This document shows, piece after piece, positions 3,201 to 51,371 of a stretch of 61,151 bases of DNA; position 1 is the stretch's first letter; every line of letters starts with the position of its first letter. Made by a program: the position numbers and the translations under genes. The notes beneath the pieces were generated by a model that searched no databases, was not told where the DNA came from, and saw only the letters and a program-made list of their open reading frames with translations. Origin of the DNA: Rhizaria sp. SCN 62-66 (taxonomy: Eukaryota); assembly GCA_001724265.1 (NCBI GenBank), contig MEDY01000295.1, positions 1 to 61,151 on the forward strand. The letters are read 5' to 3'.

Positions 3201-5854
3201 GCGACGGTAGCAGCATTGCTGTTGGTCCCAGCGTTACTGGTACTGTTCGCATTACCGTTGCTGTTGTTGTTGCTGTTGCTGTTACTTTCAGCCGCCGTCT
3301 TTGCAGCCCCAGTCGCAGCGCCCCCGGTAATGCCAGCCGCCGCCGCAGCGCCAGTCGCGGCCGTTGCGGCGGGGGCAGCAGTGGCTGCAGCAGTGGCGGC
3401 GGCGACCGCAGCCGGCAGCAGCGGCATGCCAGCCAGCGGCCCCAGCGTGTGCGGCAACGGCGGCGCAGTGCCCGCAGTACCCGTGGTCCCAGGTACCGGC
3501 ACTGCCACAGACACAGCGACTGGGACTGTGGACGCGCCCGAGACCGGCAGGGCTGCTGCCGTGGAGGAGCCAGCGGTTGCGGCCAGCGTGCTGGGATGCG
3601 GCGGCGGCACCACGCCCGGCTGCAGCGGCGGGGGCGGCTGCAACGGCGGTGGCGGCGGGTAGCCGGCTGCTGCGGCCGCGGCGGCGACTGCGGTGGCGGC
3701 GGCAGCGTGCATGGCTGCCATGTGTTGCTGCTGCTGCTCGGGCGTCTGCTGCTGCATCTGTTGTTGGATCTGCGGGTGCAGCTGCGGGTAGAGCAGCATC
3801 GGCGGCATCGGCGGGTAGCTTCCCTGAGGCAACGCGCCCTGAGGCAAAGCTCCTTGTGGAGGCAGTGTGAGGTGGCCGCCCGGGGGCAGCGGCGGTGCCA
3901 GACCGGGCCCAGTCGCAGCAGTCGTAGCCGCATTACTCAACTGCGCTACATTCAGCTGTGCAGCGCTTAGCTGAGCTGCGCTGAGTTGAGCCATGCTGCT
4001 CAGCTGTGCGGCGGTGAACGGAGGCGCCATCGGCAGCACTGCGTTGGGGGGGTCGCTGATGTTGCGACTGCTGGTAACGGTGCTCTCACCAGCGGCATTT
4101 GCGGCAGCGTGGTTGTGGCCGTGCGCAAGCGCGTAAGGGTGTTGCAGCTGCTGCAGTTGTTGCAGCTGCTCTAATGGCATGTGTGCAAACATGTTGACGT
4201 TGCTGTTAATAACGTTGCTGCTCGGATTCGTGTTGACGGGAGCGTTATTGTTGACCGTGACGCTGTTCTGCTCTTGTCCGTTGCGGTTGATTGCGTTGGC
4301 CGCAACAACTGTTGTAGAGGCTTCAGCGGAACCATTCTGCAGCTGCGGCTCTGCATGGGGCTGCGAAAGTGACTGTGAGCGCGAAATAGTGCCGGTGTTA
4401 TTTTCGCTCGCAGCAGTACCCGCGGTACCTGTGGTGCTCACGGTCTCTGGCGTCGGCAGCGGCAGCGACGGCAAATGGCCCTGTCCGTGGCCCTGCGACT
4501 GGAGCGACTGCGAATGCGGCTGTGAAGACTCCGTCTGTGATGACTGTGTCCGTGCATATGACTGTGACGGCGTGATGTGATGGTGATGAGAAGGTGTCGG
4601 CTTCACAGGCCTGAACGACAGCGGCGGCGAATCTGCGTCCGCTGCCGCCGCGGCCGCCGCAGCCGCGGCCGCCGCTGCCGCCACCGCCCCTCCTGGCTGC
4701 GCCTGCGTCTGCGCCTGCGGCTGAGACTGTGAGGGGGTGACCGTAAGCGCTGGCAGCGGCAGCAGTGCGGGCGACGACACGGCGCTGGGCCCGGCTGACC
4801 TGAGCGCGAGCGCGAGCGCGAGTGAAGACGCTGACGCTGACGCTGACGCTGACGCTGACGCTGCAGCTGAGGCTGAGGCTGCAGTGATCAAAGGCGAGGC
4901 AGCGGCTGCGGCGGCTGCGGCTGCGGCGACGGCTGCGGCGGCGGCGGCCACCGATGACGACGACGATGATGCAGTTGTAGTAGCTGTCGTCGGATTCGCA
5001 GCCGGTGGCAGCGAGGGGCCGTGCATCATAGCAGCAGCGCTACGGTTACTCCCCGTCGCGCTGCTGCCGTGCGTAGCGCTGCTGCTGTTGCTCGAGGCAG
5101 CGGCGACGGCGGCGGCCGCAGTACGCGCGGCAACGGCGACGGCGCTGTCACTGTCACTATCATTACCGCAGTCGCTCTCAGCGCTGCTGCTCGCCAGGGG
5201 CCGAAAACGCTTGAGTTCACCACCCTTGGAAGCGTCAACCTCAGTCTCAGCTTCAGCTTCGATCTTTCCGTTGACGTCTGCAGTTGTCGTCGTGTCGCCT
5301 TGCGAATTAGAGTTGTTTGCACCAGGTTCGACTTCACAGATGCTGTTACTCGGCTCCAATGTACGTTTGCGGCTACTCACAGCACTAATCATCGAGTCAC
5401 TCTAACCGTGAGGAATGCTGTGACCGTGGCCGTGACCGTGGGCAGGTGGCAGCGGCGCCAGTGCAACGCTATCCTCCACACTGCCGCGCCTCACCGGCTG
5501 CGTACTGCTGCTCTCACCCACAGTGAGAGTCGAGTTGCCCGCAGCTGCCGTTGCAACGGATACAGGAACCGGTGCTGGTGATGGCGCTATGGTGGCGCTG
5601 TTGACTGTAGGCGCAAGCGGCGGGGAGACTGGGGGCGTCATCAAGGCCGAGAAACCAAACGCGAGCGCAGGGGAGAGTGCACCAGAATGCAAGCGCATCG
5701 CATCAGCACCGGCGCCGCCTGTGATGCCGGCAGAGACCGAGCCAGAGCCAGAGCCAGCGCCAGAGCTCGAGTTGGAGTTGGAGTTGGAGGCTGTGACTGC
5801 GGGGGCTGCGGAGAGCACTGGGGAGCCGGTGCCGGGCGCGCACGCAGGCTGCAT
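254..5854 (-). CDS. Large low-complexity (Ala/Gln/His/Pro-rich) SAP-domain protein, ~1866 aa, with one in-frame TAG at 5402-5404
   Basis: ORFs 5402..5854 and 254..5392 share a frame and are joined by TAG-AGT-GAC-TCG-ATG (HSIPHG*SDSMISAV), with the same composition on both sides. There is no further in-frame ATG before a TGA at 5942-5944. Ends with TAA at 254-256. SAP-like segment YLHALTLRQLGDLCKKHRISPYGPKEKVVERLINA. Confidence 0.85.
885..1100 (-). repeat. CAG/CAA microsatellite tracts encoding poly-Gln
   Basis: Runs of (ctg)n and (ttg)n on the + strand translate as QQQQQ tracts in the SAP gene. Confidence 0.9.
1987..2092 (-). other. SAP domain (helix-extended-helix DNA-binding motif)
   Basis: Pattern L..LT...L...CK...I...G.K..VV.RL fits the SAP consensus; it is the only globular-looking part of the protein. 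Confidence 0.75.
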
Positions 5855-6781
5855 AACCGCCTAGCAAGCGCACAGGCGCGGGGCAGCGCGGCGAGAGCGT
5901 GCGAGGCTAAGCTGAGCGAAGCGGCAAGGGCTTGGTGAAGCTCAGCGGAGCCGCGATGGGCGACAAGGTTGGTGTGAAGCGGGACAGCGTTGTAGCCCCA
6001 GGAAAGAAAGGGAGTGCAATATAAGCGCAATTTCGAGATAAAGAAAAAAGGAAACGCTTTCAAGGCACGTTGGTTATTAGAATGAAGTGTGTTGTCGAGG
6101 TGAGCGCGCGGGGTAAGGTAGGAGTGGTGAGGGAGCAATGGCCAGCGAGTGCAAGCGCAGAGAGGTCGGCATCAAGGGATAACAATAAATTTAAGGCACA
6201 CAATTAAAGTTACCAAAACAAACAAAGCAGTTGAAACCAAAATCATGTTCTGTTCCGCAGCTGACGTTGACAAGCACGTAGGCGAGATCGTTTTTGTGCT
6301 TGTTCGCGGCGCAGCTTTCTCAGCTGGCCGCAGTCCCCCCAAATCGACCACAAGCGTAGTCCACACAGGCAAACACGTCTTCTTCAAGACGTTACTGCTC
6401 TGACCGAGAAACAAGCACGAACATAAGCTTTATTTCCATGGTCTATAAGAGATAAGACAGAATAATTAATTGAGCTTGGAGTCATAGATAGACACTGTAT
6501 TCTGCAAATCGCTCTTGCGAATAAGTAGCCTGAGTATATCAGACAAGCAGCTGGCCCTAAGTTCTATTATATCACAGATGCAAAGCTCCAACTATCAATA
6601 GCAACGTCGTTATCAAAAGAACAACGTTCATAATTATTATTAAATACCACCACACAAGAAGAAAAGCTAAATGCAACTCGAACAACGAACCACAAGAACA
6701 CATGAACCACCAGCTTCCTTATCGCTGTCGTTTTCGCGTTTGCTTTCCTTGCTTGCGTCAGCGCTTGCGCGTCCAGCGCGC

Positions 6782-8616
6782 TCACTTGTTCTCCCAAGGC
6801 TTGCCGAGGTGCGGCACCATGGCATCGAGGTCCTTCTCGCTGGCGCCGGCTGGAATGCCTCCCAGCGCGCCGACGCCGCGCGCGATGTTGTCCCTACGCT
6901 GCTGCCAAGCCATCGCCGTGGGGTCGTTGAACTCCTGGTACGGCGCGCGCAGAACGCCGAAGAACTTGCGCGACGGCGGCAGCAGCGGCGACGGCCACAG
7001 CTCCGTGCGCACGGGCGTGCCAGCGTCGCCCAGCGCACGCTCGGTGGGGTTTTGCAGCAGTTCGTTGCGCCACAGCGGCCGCGGCTGCTGCTGAGACGGC
7101 TCTGGCATCGGAATGAGCTCCATGGTGTTGCTCTCGTGGAAGCGGTTTGGCCGCCGCGTCTGCGCCGCCACGTCGAGGCTGTACCGGTGCGCGCGCCGCT
7201 GGTTCTCGGACCACGTCTTGAGCAGCAGGTCGTCAGGCTCGATGTTGCGGATGCCGGGATGCAGTGGCTGGATGAGCCAGTCCTGCGCGTCGACTTCGAG
7301 CCCCGCGCGCATGCGGAGCCCGCGGACGTACTCGAACTTGCGCAGCGCTTCGCTGGGCACCATGTGCGTGCGGCCCTTCATCAGCTTGTCGAAGTCAGGC
7401 CGTACGTCGTCACGTTGGTCGGGGAACATACGGTAACGAATGCGCTCGTAGTTTTGGATGTATTCGCGCCACATGTTGTTGCGGCCCAGGTACGGCTCCA
7501 TGTTGGTGTAGAAGAGCAGCGACAGGTCGTCGATGTACGTGTGGAAGCTCTTGAGCACCTGTGTTTGTTGTTGAATTTGCAACAGAGAAAACAATAGGAA
7601 GAATCAAAGCAAAACAAAGCAAACACAAAAAGAGTCGAGATACGTGAGATATATCGGGTTGTTATCAAACAGAAAGAAAGGATACGGTACATTTCAGTTT
7701 GGCATAAAAATAACAGCATGCTTGAAATTGTCATATGTTTGTGTAATGCGGCAATATATAGTGCGGTATATCGTGTGTAATTGCAACGTACCGTGCCGAT
7801 GATGAAGAAGGACGCCACAGCCCGCGGCACACGCTGCAGCATCGTGCGTTTGCCGCCCAGCACAGTCATGTTAAGATAAGCCGCGTAGGCGCCGATGCCG
7901 AACGACACGCCGCGCTCGGCGCCGGTCTGCGGCGCGAAGAAGAGCGGAATGGGCATGAACGTGGCCCAGGTGCGCTTGAGTCCGCGCTTGAGGTAGAAAG
8001 GCAGCGTGCGGAACGTGGAGCGGAAGCTGCGGACGAGGTAGTAGATCGAGTACATGCCCTGCGCGCGGCCCGTAGTGGTGATGCCGCGCTGCATCACAAA
8101 GCGTCGCATCCCCACGTGGAAGTTGTTGGCGAAGCCGTACATGAGCCCCCCGATTGTGACCCACGGGAAGAGGTTCCAGAAGGCCTTGTAGTTCATGAGC
8201 GGGCCGAGAGGAAGCATTTGCTCCCACTGGGGCGGCTCCACGCCGCGCGGGACGGGGAACCAGAGCCCGTGCTCGTCGCGGATGCGCGACTCGCCGGGCT
8301 GGATCGGCTCGCGCGGGCGCGGGCGCGAGTGGTCGTGCACGATCTCCTCGATGTCGGGCTTGTTGGGGTCGCGGCGCAGGAGGATGTTGGGGTCGCGCAT
8401 GATCTGCCACGCAACCGGGAAGAAGGACTTGTAGTCGAGTTTGCTCACGTCCACGTCCGCGTACGCGGGGTCTTTGGCGCGCTGTCGCGCGAGCACGTGT
8501 CCGAGCGCGAGGTCGTACTGCGTGCGCACGGCTTCGTCGACGCGCGACGACGGCAGGTCGAGCGAGGCCGCCTCGCCGGGCGGCAGGATGCTCTGCAGGT
8601 ACGCGCGCTTCTCCAT
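6782..8616 (-). CDS. Two-exon orphan protein, ~533 aa (exons 8616-7792 and 7558-6782), possibly membrane-associated
   Basis: Strong C/G third-position bias in both exons, separated by an AT-rich gap with GTACGT...ACAG ends. The phase-0 join gives FFIIGT|VLKSFHTYIDD. Ends with TGA at 6782-6784. Several moderately hydrophobic Gly/aromatic segments. Confidence 0.85.
7559..7791 (-). other. Spliceosomal intron, 233 nt
   Basis: Donor GTACGT, acceptor AAACACAG, AT-rich; removal keeps the frame. Confidence 0.85.
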
Positions 8617-9974: not shown

Positions 9975-10017
9975 GTTTTTCTCCCCCTGACCTTGTTTTT
10001 CTCCCCCTGACCTTGTT
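9975..10017. repeat. Perfect 20-nt tandem duplication
   Basis: (gtttttctccccctgacctt)x2 followed by gtt. Confidence 0.9.
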
Positions 10018-14063: not shown

Positions 14064-14786
14064 GCGAAGTCTATATCCAAATGCTTTTTGTTTGACAGTG
14101 GATCTGGCTCCTAGAGGTTGGGCGACGCTGCGTGGTGGAAAAGTCTTCAGAAGAATTTAATGTGATAGGTACGACTGGTGATGCTACTAAGGCCCCAAGT
14201 CGGCGTTTCATAACGATGAATTTGAACTTAGTTACAATAGAGATCGTTTTCCGTTTATTTTGACGAATTTTCTTGGTGTTCAGGTTGCTTTCGTGACAAG
14301 AAGTATTACTACTGTAATATGGTACATGTAATACTTACATAAATGTAAATATACAATTAGCACTGTTTTATTTATAAGCTTAAGGTATACGCCTTAAAAC
14401 AAACGTATATAATCAAAAGCTGCTCATATCAAATTAGTCATCGTATAGCACCAGTACTGGGCATGCGACTGACCACCCACGCACATGTAACACACATGTA
14501 TGCGCTCACAATCACAAAGCAACAGTATGAGGTTGTTGTTTACAACACCTTTTGCCAGAGAATATGAGCCAATGGTTATAGTGGAAGGGAACTAATGAAC
14601 TAAACGACATTAAAGTGATGAGAGCACGCTCGAAGCTAACAATACAACAATAACAGTAAGCTTGACTCAAAACCAAAACAATATTGCGACAGAGCAAAAG
14701 GGGAAAGACTCGCACTGCAATAACGTGAAAAGTACGACAAAGCACAGCGTTGCAACAATCAAGGCTTTGGTAATTTCTAACAATAT

Positions 14787-15377: not shown

Positions 15378-18300
15378 TTACTCTGGCAAATCGGGCTGAA
15401 GTGCGAGATCGAGGTCACGGCTCTCGCCAAGCATATGAGCGTGACCGACCTGTCTCCGGGCGTCCTCAATGAGCCACTGCGCCACGTCTTCCGTGCTCAA
15501 CTGGAGCGCGGCCGCAGAAGATGACAGAAGTCCGGTGCTGATATCGCGGCCCACATCGAGCGCGCCCGCGAGAGCAGCGCCGCGCTGCGCATTGGTCAGG
15601 ATCTCACTCGACTGCATATTATGCATCTCTTCGCTTGACTTGTCATGTCCGCCGCCGAATTGCAGCCCAGCATTAGCACTGTTGCCGCCGATGCTTTCGA
15701 GCGCGTGCTCACGGAGCATTTCAACAGATTTTGCGAGTGTTGACGCCGGTGCAGTGCTCGTTGGCGCGGTGACGAACATATTTAAGTCAGCGCTGCGTGC
15801 GGTGCGAGAGCGAGACTCTGATCCATCTGCTGAAGGCATATTAATTAGCTCATTATTGACGTTATTGTGATCGTTGACGTCAATAGTTGCGGCTCCATTG
15901 CGCTTTGTTTGTTCCGCGCGGCGACGCTCTCTCACCATGGCAATGCGCCATTCGCGAATCACAGGCTCCGCCTCCATCCCTTTGGCGTGCGCCTCACGGA
16001 GCGCATTGCGAAGTGGGACTAGCTTCGCCTCCTGCTTTTGTAGCACAATGAACGCAAGCACAACAGCGGTGATGAAGATGACGACCAGCATGCAGATCAA
16101 AACAGTGATGACAGTCTTAGCCGTTTCACTCACGGTGTCAACGAAAAGGAAATTAGCAAGGAAGAAAACCATGAAAGACATAAAAAGTGACAGTAACTCA
16201 GCAATTTCAGTTACTTTGTTTTCAAAGGGTTTCATGAAAATCTGCAGGAGAATCGAGAGGAAAATAAACAGCGACGCCAGTAAAAGCTGTGTGTGAAGCG
16301 CACCGGGGAAGAAAACAGCAATAGCAACCAGAATTGCTTTGCGTGCCATCTCATTGAGGAACCAATAGTAGCGCGTAGGTTTGTAGCCACGGTAGAGGAA
16401 GGCCATCTGCGACTCGAACACCTTCTTTTGATTCCGCATCACTGTTGAGGCGCCCTGCGAGGACATTATCACTAAGTCACGGTTGCGGAAAAGCACAAAC
16501 CAGGCAAAAAAGGGGATGTCCAGCACCCAGAGGATTAACATCGGCATCCCAAGTGTGACAATGAAAAAGATATGTTGAGAAGAATAACACTTTTCAAGCA
16601 TATTGCCCAATACAACATTTGCCGACGAATCGTCATCGCCGCCAACGTTCTTGCATGAAAGCATTGTGAAGAATTGGCGAGTTACGTTCGGGTGAATCAT
16701 AAACATAACAACAGTGATTGTGGTGATAATGTAGCCAGAGTACTAAGAAATAATGTTGTTGTACTGCGTCTCAGCAACATCCAGGCGAACGCGCATTTCA
16801 GACGCAGTCAGCTTTGGTGGCTCTGATTTGAGACGTTGTTCACGGGCCTTTTCAAACATTGCCTTCCCGTCCTTTTCGCCATAGTTGCCAACGTACCACT
16901 GTTGCTGTTGCTCCGCACGCACGCGTTGGAATGCGCGCTCACGGCGGAGAACGCGGTCCCTCAGAAGCTCGGCGTTGTACAACGAGTCAAACGGTAAAGT
17001 AGACAGAAGACGCATGTTCTCCAAGTCCTCGGCGCTCTGTACGACTCGCGCAAACTCAAATGTTGATGTCGCCTTGTTCTCAGCTTCCTTTGACTTCTTA
17101 GCATTAAACTCGGGTGTTTCGCGCACAATCATTGAGTACACCTCGACCTCACGAGCCACACGCTCATATATCGACTCGCGACTTTGGTGCATTAACGCAT
17201 ACGCACGTGAAAGAGCTGCCTCGCTCACTTGCGCTTCATCTATAAGAGTGCTGCGCAAAATAAATGCCGCATCATCGCACAGCACAGAGCTAAATAAGTT
17301 AGCAATGGCGCTGGGGTCGTCGTCGTGAGAGTTCTGAATCGTCGCGTCGTTGTTGACGGAAGAACCAGTTGGAGGGAAAGGGAGGCTTTGCTGGCGATAG
17401 GGGACGCCGCGCGTCTCCGGCAATGATTTTGTGCCAGAGACAGGCAATACAGCATCATGTTTCTCCTGCATGCCAGAAAGTGGTGGCGTAAGATTAATTG
17501 AGACTGCTGGTGCGTCACGATCACTAAAGCTTGTGTTGATGTAACTGTTGAGGTTATTCTCATCAACAAGGTCGTTATGCTCAAACACCACGATATCGGA
17601 GGTTTCATCAAGCTCATCAGCGGCTCTACGGTCAGGGTTGCTGTGAATCTTGCTCGAAGGGCCCCAAGTGCGGGTCGCAATCCCGGCTTGTTCAGAGCTT
17701 AAAACTGGTGTTACTGATGACGTGTTTGCACTCTGCTGGGTCATCATTACGTCGTAGTTAAACGGGTGCATTACATCAGCTTCAGACGCAGACTCAACCA
17801 CAGCTGAAGAGGAACACACGCGCATTGTCACTCCACGGCCCGGCAAAAGCGCGGACACTCGTTGAAACGGCGAGCGGTTATCATTACTCACATCAGAAGC
17901 GATTCTCATAATGCCGAACAATGCGGAAGTTGTGGGTGAGTCGCCTGAGTGCGGACAATTACCGGACTGTACAGTGTCTGTTGTCACTGCGCGCAGACCA
18001 CGCTCCTCAAGCAACGCATCACGCGTGCGCGCGGGAGATGCTGTTGTAGCTCGAAATCCCCGACAACCGTACGAGACCCTCATAGGTGACTCGTCCCGGT
18101 GGAAGGGGCCGCCAACTGGGGATCCAGGTGGAGGAGCAAAGATATGCTGTGCTGAGCCTCTGTTCACGCCTATCTGTTGCGCGACGCTTGCGCTTGAAAT
18201 GCGGGACACGCTATTGCTGCGACTGACGCTGGGTAAGCCTGTACGCCGACGGTGCAACGGGGTACGAGGAGCTCCATAGCCGGAAACTTGTGTTGAGAAC

Positions 18301-33300: not shown

Positions 33301-36300
33301 TGTGAGTTGTACTGCATATGTAGCCGTTGGAACATCCCACTCTCCAAAGCGCTGGTGAGTGTAAGCAGCAAGTCCTGTGTTTTGCAAAACGCGGAGCGTT
33401 GTCAGGAACGGAAAAAAAATGACACTACGGCCCGAAGGTCACCTCGATTAAGGCCTCACTCAGGAGTTCATTTGGCACAGTATCAAGAGTAGTTTCCAGC
33501 GTCAAGTACGAGCGCCCAGAAGCAGAGTGCAGTGTCGGAACTAATGTGGGCGCCACAACCATTGTTGCTGAACTCATCACTTGGAGTTCCGCAAAGTGTC
33601 TATAGCGGACAAGACTGTTTGGTGACACAATATCAAGCGTATACACTTCACCCGCCCGATAGCTTGCGGGAGCAGGAAACGTAATTACAAGCACCGCACT
33701 GACAGATTGCAAGCAGTAGTATTGCGATGGACTCGCTAGAGTCAGCTTGAGTGAGCGCAATGGGCTCAATGGAACCATCGTCAACGTGAGAGTATTCGTC
33801 CCCCCCGCAGTAAGCGGCACAGTCATCTTAATCGCGGCAGCGCTGAATGCAGCGAGCACGGCACCAGTTTGCATCGAAGGGGGAAATGTCAACACCATAT
33901 ACTCATCAGAATTAATCATCACATTGCCACCAGCGCACATGTCCGTTGGCGCAATGAGCGTGTGAACCAGATCTGTGGTTGTTGCAGCATTAAAGTATGA
34001 AGAAATGCTCCCGCGGATCACGTCAAAGCGCCCAGTATACAGCTGTTGACTTTTGTCGTTCAAGATCGTCATCTCAACCTCAGCGCGTTCAGATGTCGAG
34101 GTGCCAATTTCAGTGTTCTCAATAGTGAGCGTCAACAGATCGCCTGAGAGTGTACCACAAGAAAAAATAGGACAATTGATAGCGCGTAGCACGTCGGGTA
34201 GCGAGCTCTCGGTCGCAATGCAGACAAGGTCACAGCGATTTGACGACGAGTCTGTCAACGATGCCTCCACAGTCATTGTGGGCGGCGTCGTTGCGACAAA
34301 ACGTACCGTGGCAGATGCGCCTTGAAGCTTAATTTCTAGTCTCTGTGTTGCTGAGACTGCTGGGCTCCAATATGGTACGTTAATCACAGCGCGCAGCGGA
34401 CCATAGTTCTTTTCAGGTGTGAGTGAATGTGTCACGTCCGTTATTGAAGTTGGGTACGCACCAGCGGCAAAAGCTGGAATTACAGCTATTGCGCGCAGAG
34501 CAGTACTGGACATTAGCCGCAGCTCGAGTTGCTGCTCAATAATAAGATGACTGCAAGAGACTGTAACGCGCAGAGTCGTTGAGCTTGTACCTGCTGCAAA
34601 GCACGAAGTCAGAGGAACATTAGCACCTGCAGTCAGAGGTTTGCACAGCAAACTTATAGGCGTCGGTAACAAACGTTGAACGCTCTCAAGCACAACGTCA
34701 ATGGGGGTGTTGTGTGGTAATGCGTCGCGCGTAACTAAGGCAAGCTCCATGTCGGCTGCGACGTCGTTGATCGAAGTCCAGGTCATGTCACAAGTAATCA
34801 TGTAGCGAGTAGTTCCAACCGAGTGGGTGCACGATGTTGCTACCGAGTGCGCGGGTGTGTCTGAGAGAATCATCTGTTTTGTGGCATACGCAAAGGCAGT
34901 TGTGACGGCTACGGCCACTGCGCCATAACCAATGTTCATAAGCTTATGTTCATAGAGAGTCATTGCGGCAGACGTTGTGCGACTTCCCATAAGCTCCGCA
35001 ATCACAACCAGGCGGTCAGATAGCGCAGAGACAGCTACTTGCTTCACATCTACAGTCACCTTCATATTGATCATGCTTGCGACATATGGAATGACGATTA
35101 CACCCGTTGCGCCAACGGCCACAGGCGCACTTGCAGAGCCGGTTTCCACAAGCACACTGTACTGTGCAGAGCCGTAGCTGATACCAGTTAAAGGCAGTGT
35201 TAGAACAAAGTTCATGTCAAGATGAGCCATTGCTGTTTGTGTCGAAAAGAGTACAATGCTTAGAGCCCTCTCGTTTGTTCCGGAAACTGCAAATAACGCA
35301 CTAAAAATACTTAGGGGCGGTGTCGGCGCTTGCTGGGGCTCAAGAGCATCGGGAAGCACAGCGATTGGCACAAGCGTGACAATTTGTGCTGGCTCAGTCA
35401 TTGTCCGCGAAAGAATTGTCAGAGACTGCATTGGGTTTGCAGGACCTGAAGTAAATCTGCGTTCAAGCGGGAAACGCAACACGCAACCAGCTGTGGACGA
35501 GCACGCAGGTACTGCAGCCGTGACTTCGGTGGTAACGGTGACCGCGAATGATGATGATGGAATCTTTATAGCAGTAAATCCTGCAGTGGTGAGAGGAATA
35601 TCCGCCGGGTAGTCGTAGAATGTAAAGTCTCCAGTAGTCGGAAGAACAAAGTCAAAGCTTGGCATTCCCGTATACCAGAACATGTCAAAGAACGTAACCT
35701 GCAGGTGAAATGGTGCCGCAGTAAATACGTCAGTAGTGCGAGTACGGTCTACAGTAGCCTGTAACGGTGGAGGCGCTCCAACAGGGTAGAGCGGGGCACC
35801 TGAGGTGGTTGAGGCCTCGAATATAAGTTGGACGATAATACAATCAGGCGCAACGTATGCCGGGGAGTCGAAAGTAACAAGCTTTGTGGGGTCAAGCTCT
35901 AAATGAGAAAAGCCAAACGCAATCGGATATGAGGGCTCAAACGGGCCATCAGTGCATGTAACTGTCAGGACTGTAGCTGTGACACTTGCAAGCAAACAGC
36001 CCGATGTACCGGGATGAAAGACCGAGTTCACAAAGCTCGACTTCGGTGACACAGGACAAGTCGTGCTCTTTGCGCTCAGAGTAACTTTCACATCAATTGT
36101 CACAGTTGGAATGACGTTTGTGAGCACAGCACGAATGTCAAGCCGTGCGCGGTGCTGCGTCGCTGTCGAGTCACGCGTTAGTGTGGCGCCGTACATAAAC
36201 ACATTAGGCGGTGGGATTGAGCCGAGCTTGACATCTTGCAGCGGATGGTATGTTGTGACTGGTGCTTCGGTGCTAGTTAAGTTGAAGCAACTCTTGGGTA

Positions 36301-39300: not shown

Positions 39301-42300
39301 GTCATGTAGTCGGCGTATGTGGTCTTAGTTGCGCTGAAGCGCAGGACACGTGGAGTAAATTTACCGCTGCCGTCATTATCAATACTACTACAATCAGAAA
39401 ACTGTAGCAACACTGTACTTATCGGCGTAATCGTGCACGACAGCGAAGAATACTTAGTCGTAAGTGGCGACTTTGCGACTAGGCCTGGCGCAAACACGAG
39501 CGTTTCTGCCATTGCTGCTAGGGTTGAAATGTTAAAAGACCAGCTAAACAACGCCATGTGAGCGTAAACCACAACTTCCCAGTCAACGTCAACCGGGGCT
39601 GTGGCATGTTCCGGATCACGCGGGTTCACACTGCTTGCAAGCTGTGCAACCACAGGGTAAATGACAAAGTCAAAGGGATATGTTGTTGAAACGTACGAAA
39701 TGTCGATAGCGCCAGCGCGGGCAATGGCACCTGTGTTTGAGCTTACAGTGAGACACGTGTTTGTGATAATGGGATAGTAGTCAAACGTATCTGCGTCAAA
39801 CCTAAAGCTGAGGACTGTCGATCCACTTGTAACGCGGTACAACGTCGCTGAACTGGTTGCCATACTGTTAGAGCCGCCTGATAATGTGAGTCCCGGGCAT
39901 ACGCTCGAATCAAGTGCAACGGTGTAGTCAAACGTGACGGATGATGGTGTCGACATATACATGTAAAAACGCGTCTGAATCTCAATTTGCCGCGTTGATA
40001 AAGTCGCACCACGTACTATCGAACGAGATATGGCCCCGATGTGCCAGAAGTATGGAATAGCATCAGTCGGGCGCGCAACAATGTTTGCGATGGAAGGCAA
40101 GCCCGCTGAGTTGACAGGTGTGCGCAACAAAAGAGCATTAGGCAGCAAGACATATGGATCTTCATCCGTTACACGTGCGGCGGCGTTATTGTGTGCAATC
40201 TGTAGGTTGGTGAACACACAGAATATTGAGGCAGATGAATTAGCTGTGAAGCTTTCGGTCAATGTAAAGCTAACCGCAGTGCTTGTAGGTGTGCCACTAA
40301 TAACGCACTGCCCGGAGATTGTCACACCAGATAGATCAAAACAGGATGCAATTCCGGAGGCCAGTGTGAGGACTGCACCAGCCGCGAAGGTCTCACCGCG
40401 GACAATCGCAATTGTTGCTGTAATCAGTGTTATTGTTTGTGTGAAGTCTAAAGCAACGGGACTAATTGCAAAAGCAGTTGTTGTAAACGTGTAGGGCGTT
40501 TGAGCAGGTCCAATGGCAATATCATGTAAGGCTGTAACTGTTACTGCCATGGTGTCTGTTAGAGTGAAACACGATTGTGGCACTAGTTGATTTGATGCGT
40601 ATAACGTCGAATATACGTTGTTTAATTTGTACGCCGCAGCAAGCTGGAAACCAATAAATTTGGGCTGATCAGGCATGCACGCTGCGGGCATTGACATCGC
40701 AGTAAAACCGCCACTGTAGCGACTCACGCATGTGCCATTAGTCTGACTATTAATCAAAGCAACCGGTTGGCCGGAAACAAAAGCACCACAGCCACTTTGT
40801 ACAACGAAATTATAAGGGATAAACACATTTGTGTGGGGGAATAGATAAAGATGGATCTTTGCCGTCAAATCCACTCCCGTCCATGTGATATCAGTCAACA
40901 CAGTCGTAAACTAAAAGGGGAGACTTGACGTAATGGGCGCGCCAAGAGATGATCCTGCAAACGCTGGCATTGTTAAGGAGTCGTTTCCAGCAGTCACATA
41001 AGTAAGGTCGACTGTAAAGCTAAACTCGTTGTCTGAAAACGACGTTTTCTCGTAGGGAACTGTGTACTCACCAGTATAGAATGAGAAAAACATTGCGGGC
41101 GTTAGTATAGACGAGCACGTAATGCTGCCCATTGCGTAGCCGGAGCAGGCACCTGTCAAACCTGTCGAGCTCGTGGTGACCATGCCCGACGATGCGCTGT
41201 AGCTGTAGACGACAGTTGCAGCTGAGATGCGTTTAAAGAAAAACAAACGGACAAAGTAGTTTTGTCTCGATGAGCCCGTGACCGTTGGTGTGAGTGTGAC
41301 GGCATCCGCAACGGTCGCAGTCGTGATTTTGTCGAGTAAAGCGCAGCCACTGCGCTTGGTTTGGAGATCGTGGCATCGATTGTGTCATCAGACATATCGG
41401 TGTTTTGCTGCGATGCACTGACGCCAGAGGCTGTCGTGACAGCGCCTTCAGATACGTTGTACGTCTTGAACAAGGAGAGGTAGTTCGCGTACGTGGAAGT
41501 CACAGGACCAAACCGGAACACACGTGGTGCATAGTAGTTACTAGAGCCGCTGACATTACTACAGTCACTCGCAGAGACCGCAGCTGCGGTGCTATACGTG
41601 ACCGTACAGTCAATCTGTGTCAGCCCAGAGCTGGCGGTAAATAACGATGTCGGAGTCGCAGTCGTGCTCGACGCAAATGCGCTACGGGAAGCAAGGTCAC
41701 CCTGCAATGTGAGTGTGAATCCCCAACCGGCAGCAAGCGTTTTATGTGCGTAAACAATGACTTCGTACTCTAGGTCAACAAAAGCTGCTCCATGTGTCAT
41801 GCCGCTTAAATTGATGCCAGATTGTAGAGTCGCACGCACAGGATAGAACAAAAAATCAAAGTGACGTGAGTACTCTGACACTGGCTGCACTGCACCAATA
41901 GCCCGTGTAATCGACCCCATACTAAAGCAAGACAAGTCTAATAAGTAACGCGCCGTGTTTGTGACATCAAATGTAATCGAGAAAGTTGTGTCTTGTGTGA
42001 CGCGAAAATCGCCCGTTGGCGTAACGGAGTTCGAAGGTGTCACAATTAAAATGTCAGAACATGACGATATGACTGTGTACGAGATGACCGCCGAGTTCGG
42101 GTTGGTGGCGTACAAATATACGCGCAACCCGACATTGATTGCACGCGTAGCTGACAGCACAGAGCCTCGGACGAGGGAGCGGTCGCTTGGCGACATGTGC
42201 CACCAGTAGGCTGCCGTATTAATGGCACGGATGACAATGTTGGCAGATGCGGAAACGCCAGTTGTAATTGCCGGCGACGTAAGAATTAACGCGTCTTTGT

Positions 42301-44755
42301 TGATTATATACGGGTCGTTTGCCGACACGCGCGAGTCCGTATTGGCAAAAACAACGCGCAGATTGGCAACGGAACAATAGATTATGCTTCCGACATTTGC
42401 GGAAGCTGTTAATTTAATTGTTAACTTGTCACTTACTTGTGTTGCAATAGCACACGTGCCGCCTGAAACTGTGGCAGACGAAAAGTCAAAGGATGTAAGC
42501 GCCACAGTGAAAGCAAGCAGCGAGCCTGAGGAAAGAGCTTGACCAGTCATGATTGCAAATGTTCCAGCAAACGTTGAAACAACTTGGGCATAGTTTGTTG
42601 CTTCTGGAGTAAGAACTAGCGAGCTTGGAGTGTAAGTGTACGATAGTGTGTGCATGTTGGCAATAATGGGATCTGCCAGTGATGTTGCAACAGTGGTAGG
42701 CGTTCCCGTGGTTGATCGTGTTGTCAGATAAATCATCAGGCAATATCCTGGAATAGCTGGTTCCTTATTGTCCATTGGCGCCTGTACATTAGTAATGCTG
42801 AGCTGAATCCCACCTGCAGCACTTATAGATGCACCGACGTTGCATTGAAAAATAAAACGCGTTGTGTCAGCTGAAACTGTGGTGCACCCTGTGTTTGCAA
42901 TTGTCGACTCTGGCGAGAAGAAGACCGGAGAGTCTGAACAGAAGCGTATCACACCACGCATGCCACCACCGTTGTTAAAAAACACCTCGAGCCCGGTATT
43001 GTACCACGTTGAGAATGATGTCGTATACAAGTTGTTCGAGCCTGAAGTGCCCGTGAGTACTAGGCCCACAACTTCGAGCTGAAGCTGAGCAGGCGTATAG
43101 ATGCGGGTTGAAGCGTAGTAGTTACCACATCCAAAGTAGTCCCAGTAACTCGCATTCATATACGTAAAGCATGTTGCTGGGCGCGCCGCTACCTTCAGAT
43201 CTGATGACGAGAATGTTGAGAGTGTGTCGTTAGTGGTCGCTAGAAAGCGCAGCGTAAGGCTGTTTGCAATATCATGTTGATAGAATGGATAACCAAGATC
43301 AAGCATGAAAACATAGTCAGTGTTTGATTTCTTCTATTTAAGTGATATAGACTGAATTGGCGCTTCGTTGGACTCAATAAGTGGTTCTGAAAATGGGAGG
43401 TAGGGATGACCTGGAGTGATGTAAGTGAGTGAGTCAATAATGGCGCCGGACGAGGTTGAAATCTCAATATCAAAATCGCACTGATTTGTGTAAGTAAACG
43501 TATAAATCGCGTCTGCGTGCGCAGCTTTAATTGACGCCAATGAACGTTCTATAATATTGCGTATGTTAACTTCTAGAATAAACGACGTTTCTAGGGGGGA
43601 CCCCACGCTTAAGATTGCTACAGAAAGCTGGTATGGGTCATGTACTGCCACTGAAGTGTTGACTGTCATTTTTGTTCCCCCGATTGAGTACTGTGCGGCA
43701 AGTAGCCTGTAAAGCGTGATGAAATTTGAGTCAAAAGTTGATCCGCTTTTTGAAACAGATGCCGTCGGGCCATAACCGGATCCTACAGTTGATGTCCACA
43801 TCTTTTGCGTGAGCGCTAAAGTGCTGGAACATCCAGACACGACTAAGCCCGACGGCAAGCAGGGGGTGTAGCTGCAATTCTTAAATGCGGTTGCAGTGCT
43901 ACATGGCGAATCTACAAATGCATTGTTCTGAGGGAAGAGTGTCAAGTACGTCGAGAGTGTAAACGACGAGCAGCCTGTACACGACAGAGATATGAGTGTC
44001 TATGAGGCAAAGAGAAAGCTAGCATCTAACACGCCCTCCTAACTTTCATACCTTACCTCTGACACAACCCTGACTCCATGAACAGTACCACCTGCTGCAG
44101 CCTGCGTCGCAAACAAATGATCTTGTTGCTGTTGCGGTAGTGCTGTGGGGAAGAACGTGTTGGAACTTGGGTTAGCTAAAAGGTAGTCAGCATTCTTATA
44201 AATGCCTTGAATTCTTTTAAAGTTACTGAGGAGACCTTCATGTTGTTGTAGGTGTTTTTGTGCGTGCAGCAACGCGAAGCGTTCGTCACGAGCGGCAGCG
44301 ATGCGCTCGGCTTGGAGAGCGACGACCTGCTCCTGAGTCTCGAGCGGCGTGCCGGGGGTAAGCGGCGGCGGAAGTCCGTCAAGTGGCTCGCCAAGCTCGG
44401 CCCCAAGGGCACGCCAAAGGCCCGGGGGCAAGTGTGCCGGGTTCTGGAGCAAGAGGCTGTGCAGCGTCACATTCTTGATGTTGAGGCGATCGACGAATGT
44501 CTTGTACAGAATGGTGCGTGGCAACGAGTTTAGGTTGAACGGGAAAGAGCTGGGGAGTGCTGAAACAGGAAAGTTGGCTTTAGGAGAGTACTAAGAGGCG
44601 TCAACGCTGCTCTGCTATTGTGCCTGCTCTGAGTTGGCATAGCCCGCTAGAGAGACTGAAGTTGCAGAGCCTGAAGGAGCACAAAACATCACCATGAAGA
44701 ATGCCAACATGGCGAGCGCGATGAACGCGTCTCTGATACCCCATCTCCCAAACAT
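15378..44755 (-). CDS. Giant (~9,800 codon) multi-pass surface or receptor-like protein; up to 8 in-frame TAGs and 4 frame breaks
   Basis: ATG at 44755 (upstream in-frame TAA at 44816-44818) followed by a signal peptide. Successive ORFs join in frame through TAG at 44615, 44591, 44039, 44000, 43334, 40911, 33425 and 16743. Frame changes near 41330, 38765, 33415 and 26655. Domain order is coherent and the gene ends with TAA at 15378-15380. It may be a damaged allele or carry assembly errors. Confidence 0.78.
16040..19125 (-). other. Multi-pass membrane module (~9 hydrophobic helices) split by a ~660-aa low-complexity loop
   Basis: Preceded by C..GH.GPLC.VC..GY; contains FKVAVSGLQV...WP, SLDC, HP.VT..FF..LSC, FLYRGYK...YYW.....RK and KPF. 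This pattern is typical of protist Cys-rich TRP-like transmembrane proteins. Confidence 0.75.
19740..20730 (-). other. Two IPT/TIG-like domains followed by TNFR/ephrin-receptor-like Cys-rich repeats
   Basis: CPTDGGDIRLTVTGSGF...VGGRQC...LTCKLPAGSG and a second similar unit; then repeated C..C.PG.(F/Y) units. Confidence 0.75.
21556..23460 (-). other. Eight Sushi/CCP modules plus one calcium-binding EGF domain
   Basis: Eight repeats of C...Y.C..G(Y/F)...C....W....P.C, then DIDEC...C...CINTFGSYVC. Confidence 0.85.
36210..42650 (-). repeat. Three tandem, diverged ~715-aa (~2.15 kb) protein modules
   Basis: Motifs recur at that period: DPY(I/V)..; PRV(F/L/I)RF...TYA(N/D)Y; QQNT; (I/L/V)FFF; V(P/S)YE; CMP..QPK(Y/F). 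Confidence 0.85.
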
Positions 44756-46132: not shown

Positions 46133-46957
46133 ATGGCCGACAACGGCAAGAACGTTGAGGAAGCCACGCGCGAGGCCCTTGTGTCTCTCCTCTCCAACGT
46201 ACGTCTAAACCCCGCATACCATGTCACTATATCGCACTTTTCGACACAATGATTCTATCAAAGTCAAAGTAATTCAAGATATAGTACGACTCAAATATTG
46301 AAACACGATTTAAGTTAAATTAACACATAAATCATGATATCTATGTTGTTTACTCGTTCACAGTTCCGCCAGTTCACCGCGAACCTCGAGTCGCTGCGCG
46401 CCGACGTCAACACACTCGACGGACTGATTCGCCGCACAGAACACAAGGTCGACCTCACGCACACGCCATTTGAGCGCGAGTACTATACTCTTGTTGGAGA
46501 ATTCAAGAGCAAAATCGCCGAAATTGCCGCCGCAATGCCCTCCGCCGCCGCCCAGTCAAACTCACACTCCAACTCACAGTCTCAGCAGGCCCAGGCTCAG
46601 GCGCAGGCGCAGGCGCTGTTGCAGTAGCAGGCGCTGCTGCTGCAGACGCAGGCTCAGAGCTCTGAGCCCGTCTCTGTCGCTGCGACAGTGGCCGCGCTGG
46701 GCCCAGCGTTGGCCGCAGCTATTACCGCCTTTCCGGCTTCCCTTTCAGCCCCTAACGACCACAGCAACAACAACAAGAAGAGCGGCGCTAACGCGAACAG
46801 TGCGAGTGCGAGTGGCGTTGGAAAGGGCCGGCGTAAGAGTGCTGCTGCTGGTGCTGGTGCTGGTGCTGGCTCAGCTAATGCGAGTGCAAGTGCAACTGAT
46901 GCTAAGACGCCTGTCACCGGCCGCAAGCGGCGCGCGCCTGAGGTTGAGGCTGATTGA
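46133..46957 (+). CDS. Small two-exon protein (~219 aa): helical or coiled-coil N-terminus, low-complexity basic tail; in-frame TAG at 46625-46627
   Basis: Exons 46133-46198 and 46364-46957 join in phase 0 (VSLLSN|FRQFTAN). CAG-TAG-CAG links ORF 46334..46627 to ORF 46688..46957 in frame. Ends with TGA. NLS-like GRRK and RKRR lie after the TAG. Confidence 0.8.
46199..46363 (+). other. Spliceosomal intron, 165 nt
   Basis: Donor GTACGT, acceptor TTCACAG, AT-rich; removal keeps the frame. Confidence 0.85.
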
Positions 46958-47267
46958 GCAATATATTCATACTTATTGGACTTCTATGCTAGATTGTGTT
47001 CCACCAAGATAATTGTCAAGCAAATGCCATCAGATGACACCTTGACGGATGTCAATGACTGGCCCCAAACTCTTTCTGGTTGAAGATGAAGTATATCATA
47101 AAGTGGAAATAAACTAAAAATCACTAGTATATTTAAAAAACTTAAATAAATTCAACATAAATACTAATTTTTAAATAACTCTCACCAAGCTTTAGACATA
47201 TCTCGAGCTTCAGTAGGATTTGACACTCAAGAGCGAGCAACTAAGTCTCCCCTTAGTCGTCCCTACC

Positions 47268-50200
47268 TTAGACCGCCTGCCCCACTGCCCCCGGCAGCAT
47301 AACCGCAGCGGCAGCAACAAACCACAGCGGCAGAAACAGATTATCCACATGCGCCGTCGCGGCCTCTAGCAACGCCGCCCCTGCCGCTAAGACAGCGACG
47401 GCTCCAGCCCCCACTGAGTCGCCGCCGCGCGCGAGTCCCCCCAGCACCGCAGCCACCGCGGCCCCCGTGGCGGCGGCGGCGGCGAGCGTGCCCGCGAGCG
47501 TTTTGCGCCCTCCTCCGGGCCAGCGCGGCCCGCGGAGTAGGGTCCCGGCGATCGAGGCCGCGGAGTCGCCGACGCCCAGTGTGATGAGGCCGGCGAGCGC
47601 GGTGACCGTGGCCGCGGCAGGCAGCTCGGGCGCCCACCAGGGCTCCATCACCGAGGGCGCAAACGGGCTCACCACAGCAGGGTCAGATGAGCTGTGACTG
47701 GGCGGCTCAGACTGCTGACTCTGACTGTGGCTATGAGAGTCGTCCTTGTTTTCATTGTTGTTCTTGTTTACGTGGGAGTCTAAGGAGATGGTACTTGGAT
47801 CAGGCTGTTCTTGGACAGGGCGATAGGGCGTATATATAACATGGCAGACATCAAAGTTGTCATTGTTTAAGTGTGACTGCAGTGACTGTGCGCGTGAGAA
47901 AGCGTTCAACACGACAGTGGACAGCAGTGGCGGCACCGCAGGCGCTTCCCCAGCCGTGAAATCAATACGACTGCGACTAGAACTAAAGGCACTGTTACTA
48001 TCATCGTTGCGACTCTTGTCGCTCTTGCTGTTGCTGTTGCGATTGATATTGATCTTATTGATGTCGTTAAAGACGACAGAGCTGCAGCGTAACGGCCGCG
48101 TCGTCGGTGCACTGATGCCCAGGGCCCGCCACGCTGCCGCGACGACGGCCGCAGCCGCAGGCGCCGCGGGCCCCTCGAGCGGGGTCGCCACCGCCAGGGC
48201 GCGCGCGGGCGCCGTGGGCAGCGGTGCCAGTGCCGTGACCACCCAGACCGGCACCGCGCATCCTAACAGGAGAAACACGTGGGTCAGCGTGAGCTCGCCA
48301 GAGTCGCGGGAGTCGGTGAAGGCGCTGTAAAACGACTGGAGCAGCGGGCCGAGCGGGCGGAGACGCGGGGCGCGCACGGCTTCGGCCAGCAGAAACAGCG
48401 CCAGCGCCGCTGCCAGGGCTAAGGAGGCGAAGCCCGGGTCAAGCAGGATAGGCGGTGCGAGTAACATGACTGCAAGCAAGTGGTAACCTTTGCGGAGAAT
48501 GGTCAGTGGCGTGCTCACGGTCACTTTAGGGCTACTCACGGTCAATTTAGGGCTGCTCACGGTCACAGCTTGGTAGTGGTCTGCTTGATCGAAGTCGTCG
48601 TCGCTGCTCAGCGTCACTCCTTGTTGCTGCTGTTGTAGCTAGGCAGCATTGCTCACAGTCATGTTCGCACTGCTCCGGTCCACATGAAGCTCGGCAGTTG
48701 CCGTGAGGTCGCTCACAGTCATCTCCTTACTGCTCACGGCCACTTTGCTCACGGTCAGTCGGTCCAGAACAAGGGACGCACGGTCACTGTTCTTCGCAAT
48801 CACAGCATAACCCCTGCTCGCGTTCATGGAAGCGCCGGCACTCGTGCTGCGCACGGCTTTAAAGCACTTGCTATACACTGACTGCTGCTTCTGTGCTTTG
48901 TGATTCACACGACTAGCGTGCTTACATCCGCGTTGATTCGTGTTCTTGTCCCCTTCACAGTCGCTGTTGCTGTTGTCGTTGTCGCAGCAGCCCTCGTTGC
49001 CGCTTTTGACCGCCGCGACCGCGACCCCGCCCACCACAAGCGCGAAACACGCCCCCAGCAGCCAGACGCGGGGCGCCGCGGTCCCCGCCGCGACCGCGGC
49101 CGCCAGCAGCCCACGCGGTGACTGTGAGCCCACGGGGTACGGCCCCGCCGCCACACCGGCCAGTGACGCCGCCAGCGGCAGCAGCAGCGGGGACGGCGCC
49201 AGCAGGAAAGAGAGAAACCACGATAGCGGCTCTTGCGGCAGCGCGAGCGTGACCAAGACGTAACACACGGGCAACAGTACGGCAGACAACACGAGCAACA
49301 CACGGGAGCCACGGCCAGACGCGTCTACGTGTCCCTCAGACCTAGAGCCCCCGTCAACAGCGTCTAAGTGCCCCTTAGACGTATCACTACCTGCACTCTT
49401 GTGATCGCGATTGCGATTATGTGGCTGTGCGTTATCGTCCTCTGTTGTTGTTGTTGCTGCTGCTGATATGATGAGTGGGAGGTCTAAGTACCCCTTACAC
49501 AGCGCCAGCGACACTGCGGCAAACAGTGCCCCGGCCGCGGCCACTGCTAGAGCCGCCGCAAGTGGAGGGTACAGAGGCTGAGCCAGCAGCGACGGTAACG
49601 GCTTCATAGTCAGCTGCCTCGCCGTGGTCGAAGACAGCGATGACCACCACGTTGACCACGATGACTGTGGGACACCACCGCCAGCGACCGTGAGCATCGT
49701 ATCCGCGACCGCGAGCACCGCAGAGATGACCGTGAGCAGTGTTTGCGTGACTGTGGGCAGCGCGACCGCGGCCCACAGAGCTGCGGGAGCTGCTGTAAGC
49801 AAACAAAGGCACCGAACATCACTGGCACCAAGAGATAACGGCGCTATAGCGCGAGCGCCGCGTAATAAAAGCACGGGCAGCGCTGTCAAAAGCGACAATA
49901 GCGCTACGAGGGAGACGGCGGCGACTACGGTCTGAATATCAGCGTGATAGACATCAATTGCGTTGCTGCTAATTTTGTTGTCGTTTTCGCTCCGAGTGGC
50001 TGCGAGCGGAGGGCGGTGGTGACGCGGCAGCAGCGACAGCAACGCCGGTCCCTCAGAGCCTGCAGTGACCGCGAGCACCCATCGCGCGGCTGTAGCAGTG
50101 GCCGCGAGCGCAGCGCGGGCGACCGCGAGCAGGCCAGAGCCAGAGCCCAGCGCCAGGCCAAGGCCGAGGGCGGCCGCGGCGACGGCGGCCGTGACCAGAG

Positions 50201-51371
50201 GAGACGACCCCCACAACAGCGGCTTCGACGGGGGTTGCGGTTGCGGCTCAGCGACAACTGGGGCAGCAGGGACAAACAAGCGGGGATTGACACCGAGACG
50301 GCTATTTGAGCTCGCATTAGTACGGCCGTTAGAGTGACACTCATCATCATCATCATCATCATCATCGTCAATAACACTCCCACAATCACTGGCGCGACTG
50401 CTGCTATTGCTGATCTTGTTGCGACAGCACTTGTCACAGTATATATCGTAGACAATGATCATCGCTGCAGCTAGAATGGTCCCCAGCGCCGCCAGCCTCA
50501 GCCCTGCCGCCGTGGCCGCCGCCGCCGCCGCCGCTGCGGCCTCCGAGGCGTGCGCATACGACGGTAACACGGCGCCAGACGCGGCGACCGGGAAGCGCCA
50601 TAGTAATAAGGCGGGGGGTAGTACCAACGACGCCGACGACGTCGACAACTCAGTGTTGTCATCCGCGTCCACGCCGCCCACAGTGAGGTCGGTGAGATTG
50701 GACGATAGGGCGGCTGCGAGTGCACAGACCAGCACGGGCGGCGTTGTGAGGCCGAGGAAGCGGCTACGGGGCAAGCGTCTGGCCACAGACCGGCGCAATA
50801 GACGCATGCGCTGCAACGCAAAGTCGGCAGCAACGCTAGAAACGTCGGGCTGTCGCTAACGCTGCTGAACTGCTTCAATAGGACTTGACAGAGAGCTAGA
50901 GCTAGAGCTGGAGCTCGAGTTAGATTTTCCGCTAGATTCAGAACCAATACAGCTATGAGAACCTGAGCTTACGACTGCGACTGCGCCCTGACTGCACACA
51001 GCCCCACTCTGCCGCCCATGCCCCTGCGGCTGCGATTGCGGTTGCTACAACCGCTCGACAGAGTCAGTGAGTGCTGCGACGGAGCACAGCAGCAGCAGCG
51101 CCGCCGCAAGCACTGGCCCCGCCAGCAGCCCCAGCCTCGCCACAGCACTGCTAAGCGCCGCGGGGGACAGCGCAGCCCACAGCGCCCACAGTAACCCCTG
51201 CGGCACCGCCTCAGCACCCGTGGCACTCGCGGCCTCGGTCAGTGGAGCCGGTGCAGAGGCAGTGAAGAAGGGGGAGCTGAGTGGGCGGCCGAGGAGCAGC
51301 GCAGCGGCGGCGGCGAGCGCGAGGGCCAGCAACAGCGCGCGCTCCAGAGCGCCCAGGAAGCCCACGCCCAT
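47268..51371 (-). CDS. DOLK: Dolichol kinase (Sec59/DOLK family), ~1367 aa with low-complexity insertions; in-frame TAGs at 51045, 50856 and 48639
   Basis: Family motifs RKGYH, FTDSRDSG.LTLTHVFLLLGCAVPVW, GLITLGVGDSAASIAG...RWP...KTLAG and LLEA....VDNLFLPL. Three ORFs form one frame from ATG 51371 to TAA 47268-47270. Confidence 0.9.
48513..48570 (-). repeat. Imperfect 21-nt tandem repeat encoding (V/L)TVSSPK
   Basis: About three copies: VTVSSPK-LTVSSPK-VTVSTP. Confidence 0.8.

Follow-up and report, generated by a model that had tools for sequence, protein, structure and literature searches.

In-frame TAG triplets within conserved genes of an uncultured wastewater eukaryote: a probable sense reading of UAG

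Changes of the nuclear genetic code are rare, and cases in which UAG is reassigned without UAA were not known before 2017 (PMC5304391) and, by the accessible part of a later survey, are still few (PMC11687900). As far as the available portions of the reports describe them, UAG is read as Gln, with UAA and UGA as stops, in the fornicate Iotanema spirale (PMC5304391) and in the ciliates Protocruzia tuzeti, Hartmannula sinica, and Trochilia petrani (PMC11687900); as Ser in the green alga Scotinosphaera; and as Leu in the rhizarian exLh and in a phyllopharyngean lineage (PMC11687900, PMC5304391). Three phyllopharyngean lineages with uncoupled UAG are given there, assigned to Leu, Gln, and Gln (PMC11687900). 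In an uncultured oligohymenophorean ciliate UAA encodes Lys and UAG encodes Glu (PMC11687900, PMC10553269), and in Blastocrithidia nonstop UAR encodes Glu (PMC12153298). Here we analyzed a window of 61,151 nucleotides, the contig MEDY01000295.1 of assembly GCA_001724265.1 (Rhizaria sp. SCN 62-66), in which an earlier sequence-only reading had proposed that UAG is sense. The contig is eukaryotic and comes from the metagenome of a bioreactor, and its DNA recurs in bioreactor, wastewater, and activated-sludge runs across several studies and years; we take it as nuclear DNA of an uncultured eukaryote. Within the window, the genes that matter most are a giant minus-strand gene (gene D) and a dolichol-kinase homologue (gene E).

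The proposal stood in so far as TAG, alone among the stop codons, lies inside coding sequence at the homology-testable sites of the window and of two relatives; it is found within conserved coding sequence and is absent from the gene ends examined. That these triplets are translated is an inference, and we consider it probable, at about 0.62, that UAG is read as sense in this organism.

TAG inside the coding sequence of genes D and E

All 13 TAG triplets on which the proposal was built were found in place (Table 1); apart from 46625, which is a plus-strand site, the other 12 are read from the minus strand. Flanking open reading frames (ORFs) in one frame, separated by the TAG, were recovered for 12 of them, but not for 33425, whose flanking ORFs differ in frame in the window. 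There the T8 run at 33412-33419 shifts the frame, and the ORFs share one only in sequencing run X2, which carries one T fewer (T7); X labels denote sequencing runs, X2 being sampled ten years after X1, which may be the run the window came from, and X5 being a polyA metatranscriptome run. A six-frame control, in which at least 100 codons were required on each side of a junction, returned 10 TAG and 14 TGA junctions, so that the sharing of a frame by two ORFs is by itself insufficient in such a GC-rich window. The TGA junctions were all short (at most 310 codons on either side), and those with one side of at least 450 codons were TAG in 5/5 cases. Likewise, the statement that no TAA or TGA interrupts the genes is partly circular where genes are defined by their ORFs, but it holds in frames supported by homology, with 7 TAG, 0 TAA, and 0 TGA in the 9,762 codons of gene D, and 3 TAG, 0 TAA, and 0 TGA in the 1,368 codons of gene E. 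The two off-frames of gene D contain 244 TAA, 147 TAG, and 515 TGA. Since TAG is tolerated in frame and TAA and TGA are not, this suggests that TAG is read.

Gene D encodes Sushi and Ephrin_rec_like repeats, paralogous modules of ~700 amino acids, and a C-terminal TRP-like membrane domain (PF06011, with a score just below the Pfam cut-off). It is composed of the pieces 44803-41156, 41384-38658, 38839-33425, 33438-26554, and 26906-15378, inside which the sole stop is TAG. For the site at 16743, the C-terminal 654 residues were searched against 1.84 billion representatives, giving 3,015 matches, of which the 58 best were aligned. The site is spanned by 31 of these 58; the 18 best-scoring all carry Glu without gaps, 11 more distant ones have other residues, and two are gapped (26 do not span the site and one gave no alignment). 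In the DNA of relatives, the opposite codon is GAG at 11 of the 12 loci in which the motif was found and GAA at the remaining one.

At 33425, the homologous protein P0170 (P labels denote homologous proteins), a 55%-identical relative, is encoded by a single unbroken ORF that runs across the site, and a conserved Cys-x-Phe-Phe-Pro then follows. An 85-nucleotide intron around this TAG (GTGAGG...ACACAG) was considered and rejected, since P0170 and P0005 align through the stretch. At 40911, Ala occupies the column in all four aligned modules (one p3, one P0170, two P0005), gap-free.

Gene E owes its identity to the names given by the Joint Genome Institute (JGI) to its homologues P0163 and P0168, which match two conserved blocks. 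No Met occurs between TAG 48639 and the conserved RK.YH block, the first Met coming after the block begins, and homologues carry 240-420 residues ahead of that block; the TAG must therefore be internal to the coding sequence. Moreover, P0163 is continuous from its membrane part into the catalytic block, that is, across the span matching this TAG. Over 50856 a 293-nucleotide X5 contig (50655-50947) shows no other letters and no gaps, being neither spliced nor edited, with carry-over of DNA possible; among the RNA-run contigs listed, those of X5 cover this one TAG, those of X12 match almost nothing of the window, and no splice joints were seen. In DNA, 8 of the 11 TAG sites compared fall in listed X2 contigs, with the letters of the site unchanged.

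Thus, continuity of the protein, previously described across every TAG, is borne out at 16743, 33425, 40911, and 48639, and is without independent support at 5402, 43334, 44591, 44615, 46625, and 51045. The N-terminal 700 residues of gene D, with five TAGs, gave no homologue among longer proteins and no paralogue. Furthermore, the view that all 13 TAGs are coding is not supported as it stands: 44039 and 44000 sit in an intron-like 57-nucleotide stretch (GTAAGG...TCATAG), which, judged from its letters, is probably a short phase-0 intron with a length of 3n. Three or four other listed TAGs could belong to an untranslated region (UTR) or be true stops.

Table 1. Positions of the genes, TAG triplets, and intron-like stretches considered in the window
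Feature	Position	Strand	Remarks
Gene A, low-complexity	254-5392	minus	1,715-codon open stretch; TAA end
TAG	5402..5404	minus	Between a 152-codon stretch and gene A; ATG 4 codons later; may be 5' UTR
Two-exon gene	6782-8616	minus	AT-rich intron; product without Pfam family
Putative spliceosomal-type intron, ~231 nucleotides, AT-rich	7560..7790	minus	GTACGT...AACACAG; would join two ORFs
Calcineurin-like phosphoesterase (PF00149)	10767-14063	plus	Split by long Ala/Ser/Asn-rich inserts
Giant gene D, ~9,700 codons	15378..44755	minus	Signal-peptide-like start; TAA end; five frame pieces
In-frame TAG	16743..16745	minus	Opposite conserved Glu of an S-E-F/Y motif, immediately ahead of helix 1 of the TRP-like domain
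In-frame TAG	33425..33427	minus	Opposite Gln (P0170) and Asn (P0005); followed by the T8 run
In-frame TAG	40911..40913	minus	Inside repeated module, opposite Ala
In-frame TAG	43334..43336	minus	Flanked by 221 and 725 open codons
Intron-like stretch, 57 nucleotides	44000..44056	minus	Holds TAGs 44039 and 44000; GTAAGG...CTCTTTGCCTCATAG, polypyrimidine before TAG
Two in-frame TAGs (44615, 44591)	44591..44617	minus	8 codons apart; just past signal-peptide-like start
Small ORF	ATG 46334, TGA 46955-46957	plus	CAG-rich stretch inside
TAG	46625..46627	plus	In CAG-rich stretch of small ORF; equally possible as true stop
Gene E, dolichol-kinase homologue	47268..51374	minus	Long low-complexity inserts; TAA end; start uncertain
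In-frame TAG	48639..48641	minus	49 codons before conserved RK.YH block of gene E
In-frame TAG	50856..50858	minus	Gene E; covered by polyA-run contig
In-frame TAG	51045..51047	minus	Near putative gene E N-terminus; could be 5' UTR

Relatives, gene ends, and the residue opposite TAG

A scan of JGI metagenome contigs recovered 16 loci of relatives (L001-L016); scans of genome contigs and viral contigs returned no further ones. In 15 of the 16 loci the giant-gene frame holds no TAG, and five of these are open for ~3,850-3,960 codons. The remaining locus, L015, has in-frame TAGs at 947, 1859, and 5780, with no TAA or TGA, in 2,726 codons, the first two being in gap-free, conserved context. One of the L015 columns is Glu in its nearest relatives (codon GAG) and Asn, Ala, Thr, Lys, or Ser in others, and the other is Ala or Ser, mostly Ser. 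The closest relative of the window, L001 (70% identity over 3,787 residues), has no TAG in the 3,964 codons of its giant-gene homologue; its downstream ORF of 800 codons has four TAGs, three of them internal, and no TAA or TGA. The fourth, at 14369, lies at a probable intron acceptor. By our own reading of its letters, the 800-codon ORF may start with a B-box-like Cys/His pattern, for which Pfam gave no hit.

The ends of genes agree with the claim that TAA and TGA remain stops. Genes A, D, and E end in TAA, genes C and F in TGA, and the small plus-strand gene in TGA, all as previously stated (gene G extends beyond the edge of the window). The proposed tabulation of stop codons found TAG at the end of 0/5 window genes and 0/13 genes of relatives. 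In the latter, reading of the giant-gene homologue first stopped at TAA in 10, at TGA in 3, and at TAG in none of the 13 loci, a small sample of mutually homologous genes that are thus not independent; L014 and L016 (frameshifted) and L015 (running off its contig) were omitted from this tally. Before the terminal stop, TAA and TGA were absent in 14/16 loci, and in L014 and L016 they occur only past the frameshift. Both frameshifts lie inside the conserved membrane domain: L014 has T7 near 2060, vs. T6 in its 99.7%-identical twin L013, and L016 lacks one A of an AA near 2022.

Two TAGs of gene D are embedded in an identical 12-mer, TCTTAGTACTCT (16737-16748 and 44585-44596, minus strand), giving Ser-TAG-Tyr-Ser at both. 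These two exact matches compare with 0.10 expected with at most one mismatch, a comparison made post hoc. At site 1859 of L015 the TAG is likewise followed by TAC.

If nonsense changes arose by neutral single-base substitution, TAG would be expected in 0.41-0.43 of events in gene D and 0.46-0.51 in gene E. On this basis, a TAG-only outcome at the four supported sites of the window would have a chance of ~0.036, falling to ~2e-4 when the three TAGs of L015 and the three internal ones of L001 are added (0.42 being used for those).

As to the residue, five columns were informative: a conserved Glu, a Gln/Asn, an Ala conserved among modules, a variable polar position with Glu in the nearest relatives, and a Ser/Ala. 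The suggestion that UAG is most likely Gln found little to sustain it, Gln being present in the nearest relative at one of these five columns and the conserved columns being Glu and Ala. The columns were scored with BLOSUM-based pseudocounts, log-odds being summed per amino acid, and they did not agree on one amino acid, with five columns too few for a firm negative. In favor of Gln, 33425 is opposite Gln in P0170, and five TAGs (44615, 46625, 48639, 50856, and 51045) adjoin Gln-rich stretches, which is suggestive only. In favor of Glu are the GAG column at 16743 and the GAG found in the nearest relatives of L015 at one TAG site. The case for Gln is thus not made, and Glu has about the same likelihood; these two would be the most likely residues, with ambiguity as a third possibility.

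Frame breaks and rival explanations

Four frame breaks in gene D, near 41340, 38764, 33412, and 26640, had gone unrecorded in the sequence-only reading. At 41336..41345 (minus strand) the frame changes by one base at an A4 run within a module, and the alignment with paralogues shows no missing residues; this could reflect a genuine frameshift allele or, alternatively, slippage in transcription or at the ribosome. At 38764, the X2 sequence is longer than the window by 35 letters, and by a count made by hand these bring the reading back into frame; at ~26640 relatives carry ~14 more codons than the window. At 38764/38765 and ~26640 the window thus seems to have lost a little sequence, through small deletions or through collapse in assembly. 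Contigs of X1 break at 38753/38765, and X1 depth is ~8 over 32.7-38.7 kb vs. ~25 on either side. Breaks at homopolymers recur across the gene D family in metagenome assemblies.

Several observations weigh against a sense reading of UAG. Contigs of X1 as well as of X2 carry the frame change at 41340, and homopolymer frameshifts occur in the TAG-bearing gene as well as in L014 and L016. By amino acid, the log-odds sums come to A 1.6, S 1.0, T -0.4, E -0.5, Q -2.6, and L -5.5, and values so near zero throughout are what random nonsense positions would give. The use of TAG is uneven, with 15/16 loci free of it in frame (in L001, none in 3,964 codons vs. three in the adjacent 800). RNA support consists of a single short contig, whose library may include DNA, and the window holds no tRNA gene. 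Finally, variants of P0158, known as protein sequences only, look like segregating nonsense alleles. P0158 itself is an intact form of 5,912 residues, from a 65%-identical relative; P0152, P0155, P0156, P0157, and P0159 are >94% identical variants ending at its Glu or Trp. The codons GAG and TGG are each one step from TAG, and no other stop is one step from codons of both residues.

One rival account is a standard code in which the TAGs are nonsense lesions of decaying, allelic, or phase-variable genes for large surface proteins and of their neighbors, with the restriction to TAG due to chance or bias. The four frame breaks, the homopolymer frameshifts of L014 and L016, TAG positions matching no single residue, the absence of TAG from most relatives, and the P0158-variant ORFs, which end at Glu/Trp positions and have an out-of-frame start, would all be accounted for. 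However, TAG is the only stop seen in three organisms (10 in genes D and E of the window, three in L015, three internal in L001), vs. ~0.42-0.49 per event under neutrality, and to our knowledge no mutational process yields TAG from GAG, CAG, and GCG alike. The X2 haplotype carries eight TAGs and one shown frameshift in the compared part, and decay is expected to yield more indels than nonsense changes (a general expectation, not computed here). In addition, the domain that lies downstream of every lesion has retained 107 of the 113 columns that are invariant in seven homologues, within the range of leave-one-out controls (107/108 to 107/137), and a dolichol kinase is not a gene one would expect to find decayed; no second copy of it was seen, although there was no whole genome in which to look. 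Thus, among the marks of a pseudogene, frameshifts were found, and in place of three kinds of stop and relaxed constraint we observed TAG only and kept constraint. We regard decay as unlikely, and if the TAGs were lesions after all, the bias toward TAG would itself need explaining.

Somewhat similar points bear on an ambiguous or leaky UAG, which would still terminate in some contexts and be read through frequently by near-cognate tRNAs or a weak suppressor, with no single residue inserted. The aligned columns are heterogeneous, use of TAG is low and uneven, termination at TAG 46625 would leave the ORF at 46334 with a plausible product of 97 residues, and codes with ambiguous stop/sense codons are described in ciliates, by the available parts of the sources (PMC4967479; preprint 10.1101/2022.04.12.488043). 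Against such leakiness, homology-defined ends at TAG were 0/5 in the window and 0/13 in relatives, no common sequence context follows the TAGs, and eight TAGs in a gene of ~9,700 codons would leave almost no full-length product unless readthrough were efficient at each. This makes a leaky UAG quite unlikely.

The TAGs might also be removed or changed before translation, as parts of short in-frame introns or UTRs or through editing of mRNA (UAG to UGG or CAG); in some fungi, adenosine-to-inosine editing turns premature UAG into UGG. In accordance with this, the 44056-44000 stretch, GTAAGG...polypyrimidine-TAG, includes two TAGs, the genome has introns and the L001 TAG at 14369 is at a probable acceptor, and 5402 and 51045 could be 5' UTR. 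Introns as a general explanation had been considered as several TAGs follow pyrimidine-rich runs, but this fails at 16743, 33425, and 40911: the bounds GT...YAG were found only at 44056-44000, and homologues show no gap at those three sites. Indeed, homologues align gap-free through TAG at 16743, 33425, 40911, and two L015 sites, so that no intron is possible at these five. Contrary to a UAG-to-UGG correction, the nearest homologue has Trp at 0/5 informative columns, and the RNA-library contig over 50856 is unspliced and unchanged. Removal as a general account is therefore very improbable.

A sense reading of UAG thus remains the preferred one. Under it, UAG would be an inefficient terminator here and in no fewer than two relatives found in other metagenomes, rare (in gene D, ~0.7 for every 1,000 codons) and scattered over positions derived from GAG, CAG, and other neighboring codons; such rarity and scatter would fit a young or weakly used reassignment. 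A more specific version, in which an uncultured, GC-rich, intron-poor wastewater clade reads UAG as Glu at an early stage (the codon still rare and missing from the largest genes of some members), keeps UAA and UGA as stops, gains UAG mainly from GAG/CAG, and tolerates one-base homopolymer frameshifts, perhaps corrected by slippage in transcription or translation, is rather doubtful as a whole.

Gene content of the window and comparison with described codes

Over the window the guanine-plus-cytosine (GC) content is 0.45-0.75, with 0.59-0.75 at both ends and ~0.50 in the middle, which corresponds to the giant minus-strand gene. The step is sharp for a single contig, the giant-gene region (14000-46000) being at ~0.50 vs. 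0.60-0.75 in the neighboring genes. GC at the three codon positions was also followed across the TAGs, with no periodicity that could be used. The putative intron of the gene at 6782-8616 indicates that the genome has introns. Low-complexity inserts like those of the phosphoesterase are present in most window genes, and the remaining ORFs encode low-complexity, Ala/Gln/Ser-rich products; searches of Pfam and NCBIfam with gene E, gene A, and other ORFs returned no family. No tRNA, no rRNA, and no Rfam match were found within the window. Atlas neighbors are broadly eukaryotic (Chlorophyta, Haptophyta, Ciliophora). Ciliate genomes are not known to be GC-rich, unlike the window DNA.

If confirmed, a sense UAG would add a case from outside the ciliates, found in wastewater metagenomes of several years and studies, and in which the codon is still rare, a stage that models of reassignment need and that is seldom seen. 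There is also a practical consequence, as standard gene callers split such genes at each TAG, and the database proteins of this organism, P0001 and P0019, are such fragments. By titles and the openings of abstracts, the literature searches listed no UAG change for a GC-rich wastewater eukaryote.

In the available parts of the reports cited at the outset, Iotanema, Protocruzia, Hartmannula, and Trochilia resemble the window in using only UAG as sense and keeping UAA and UGA as stops, and in having UAA as the commonest stop (here 3/5 window genes and 10/13 genes of relatives). One window site opposite Gln and five TAGs near Gln-rich stretches are also in line with these UAG = Gln systems; unlike them, the conserved columns here are Glu and Ala, UAG is far rarer, and the DNA is GC-rich. 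The systems with UAG = Glu share with the window the sole strongly conserved column under a TAG, which is Glu with GAG in relatives, but in them UAA is reassigned as well, whereas here it ends genes; the same portions of the literature name no nuclear genome that reads UAG as Glu and stops at both UAA and UGA. Scotinosphaera, exLh, and the phyllopharyngean lineage with Leu are alike in that UAG is uncoupled from UAA, and Ser is second in the five-column sum (1.0), with one column mostly Ser. Ser is poor, however, at the invariant Glu column (-0.58), and Leu fits no column here (sum -5.5). With the ambiguous codes described in part for Condylostoma, Parduczia, and karyorelict ciliates, the window has in common an in-gene stop codon not tied to one residue; in those ciliates several or all stops are ambiguous and also end genes, in contrast to the window, where TAG only is concerned and no gene end examined is TAG. 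From the described cases taken together the window departs in how rare and dispersed UAG is, and in genes that are GC-rich and mostly poor in introns. In brief, the window represents a probable further case of uncoupled UAG reassignment, and it would be a new variant among the described codes if the residue is Glu.

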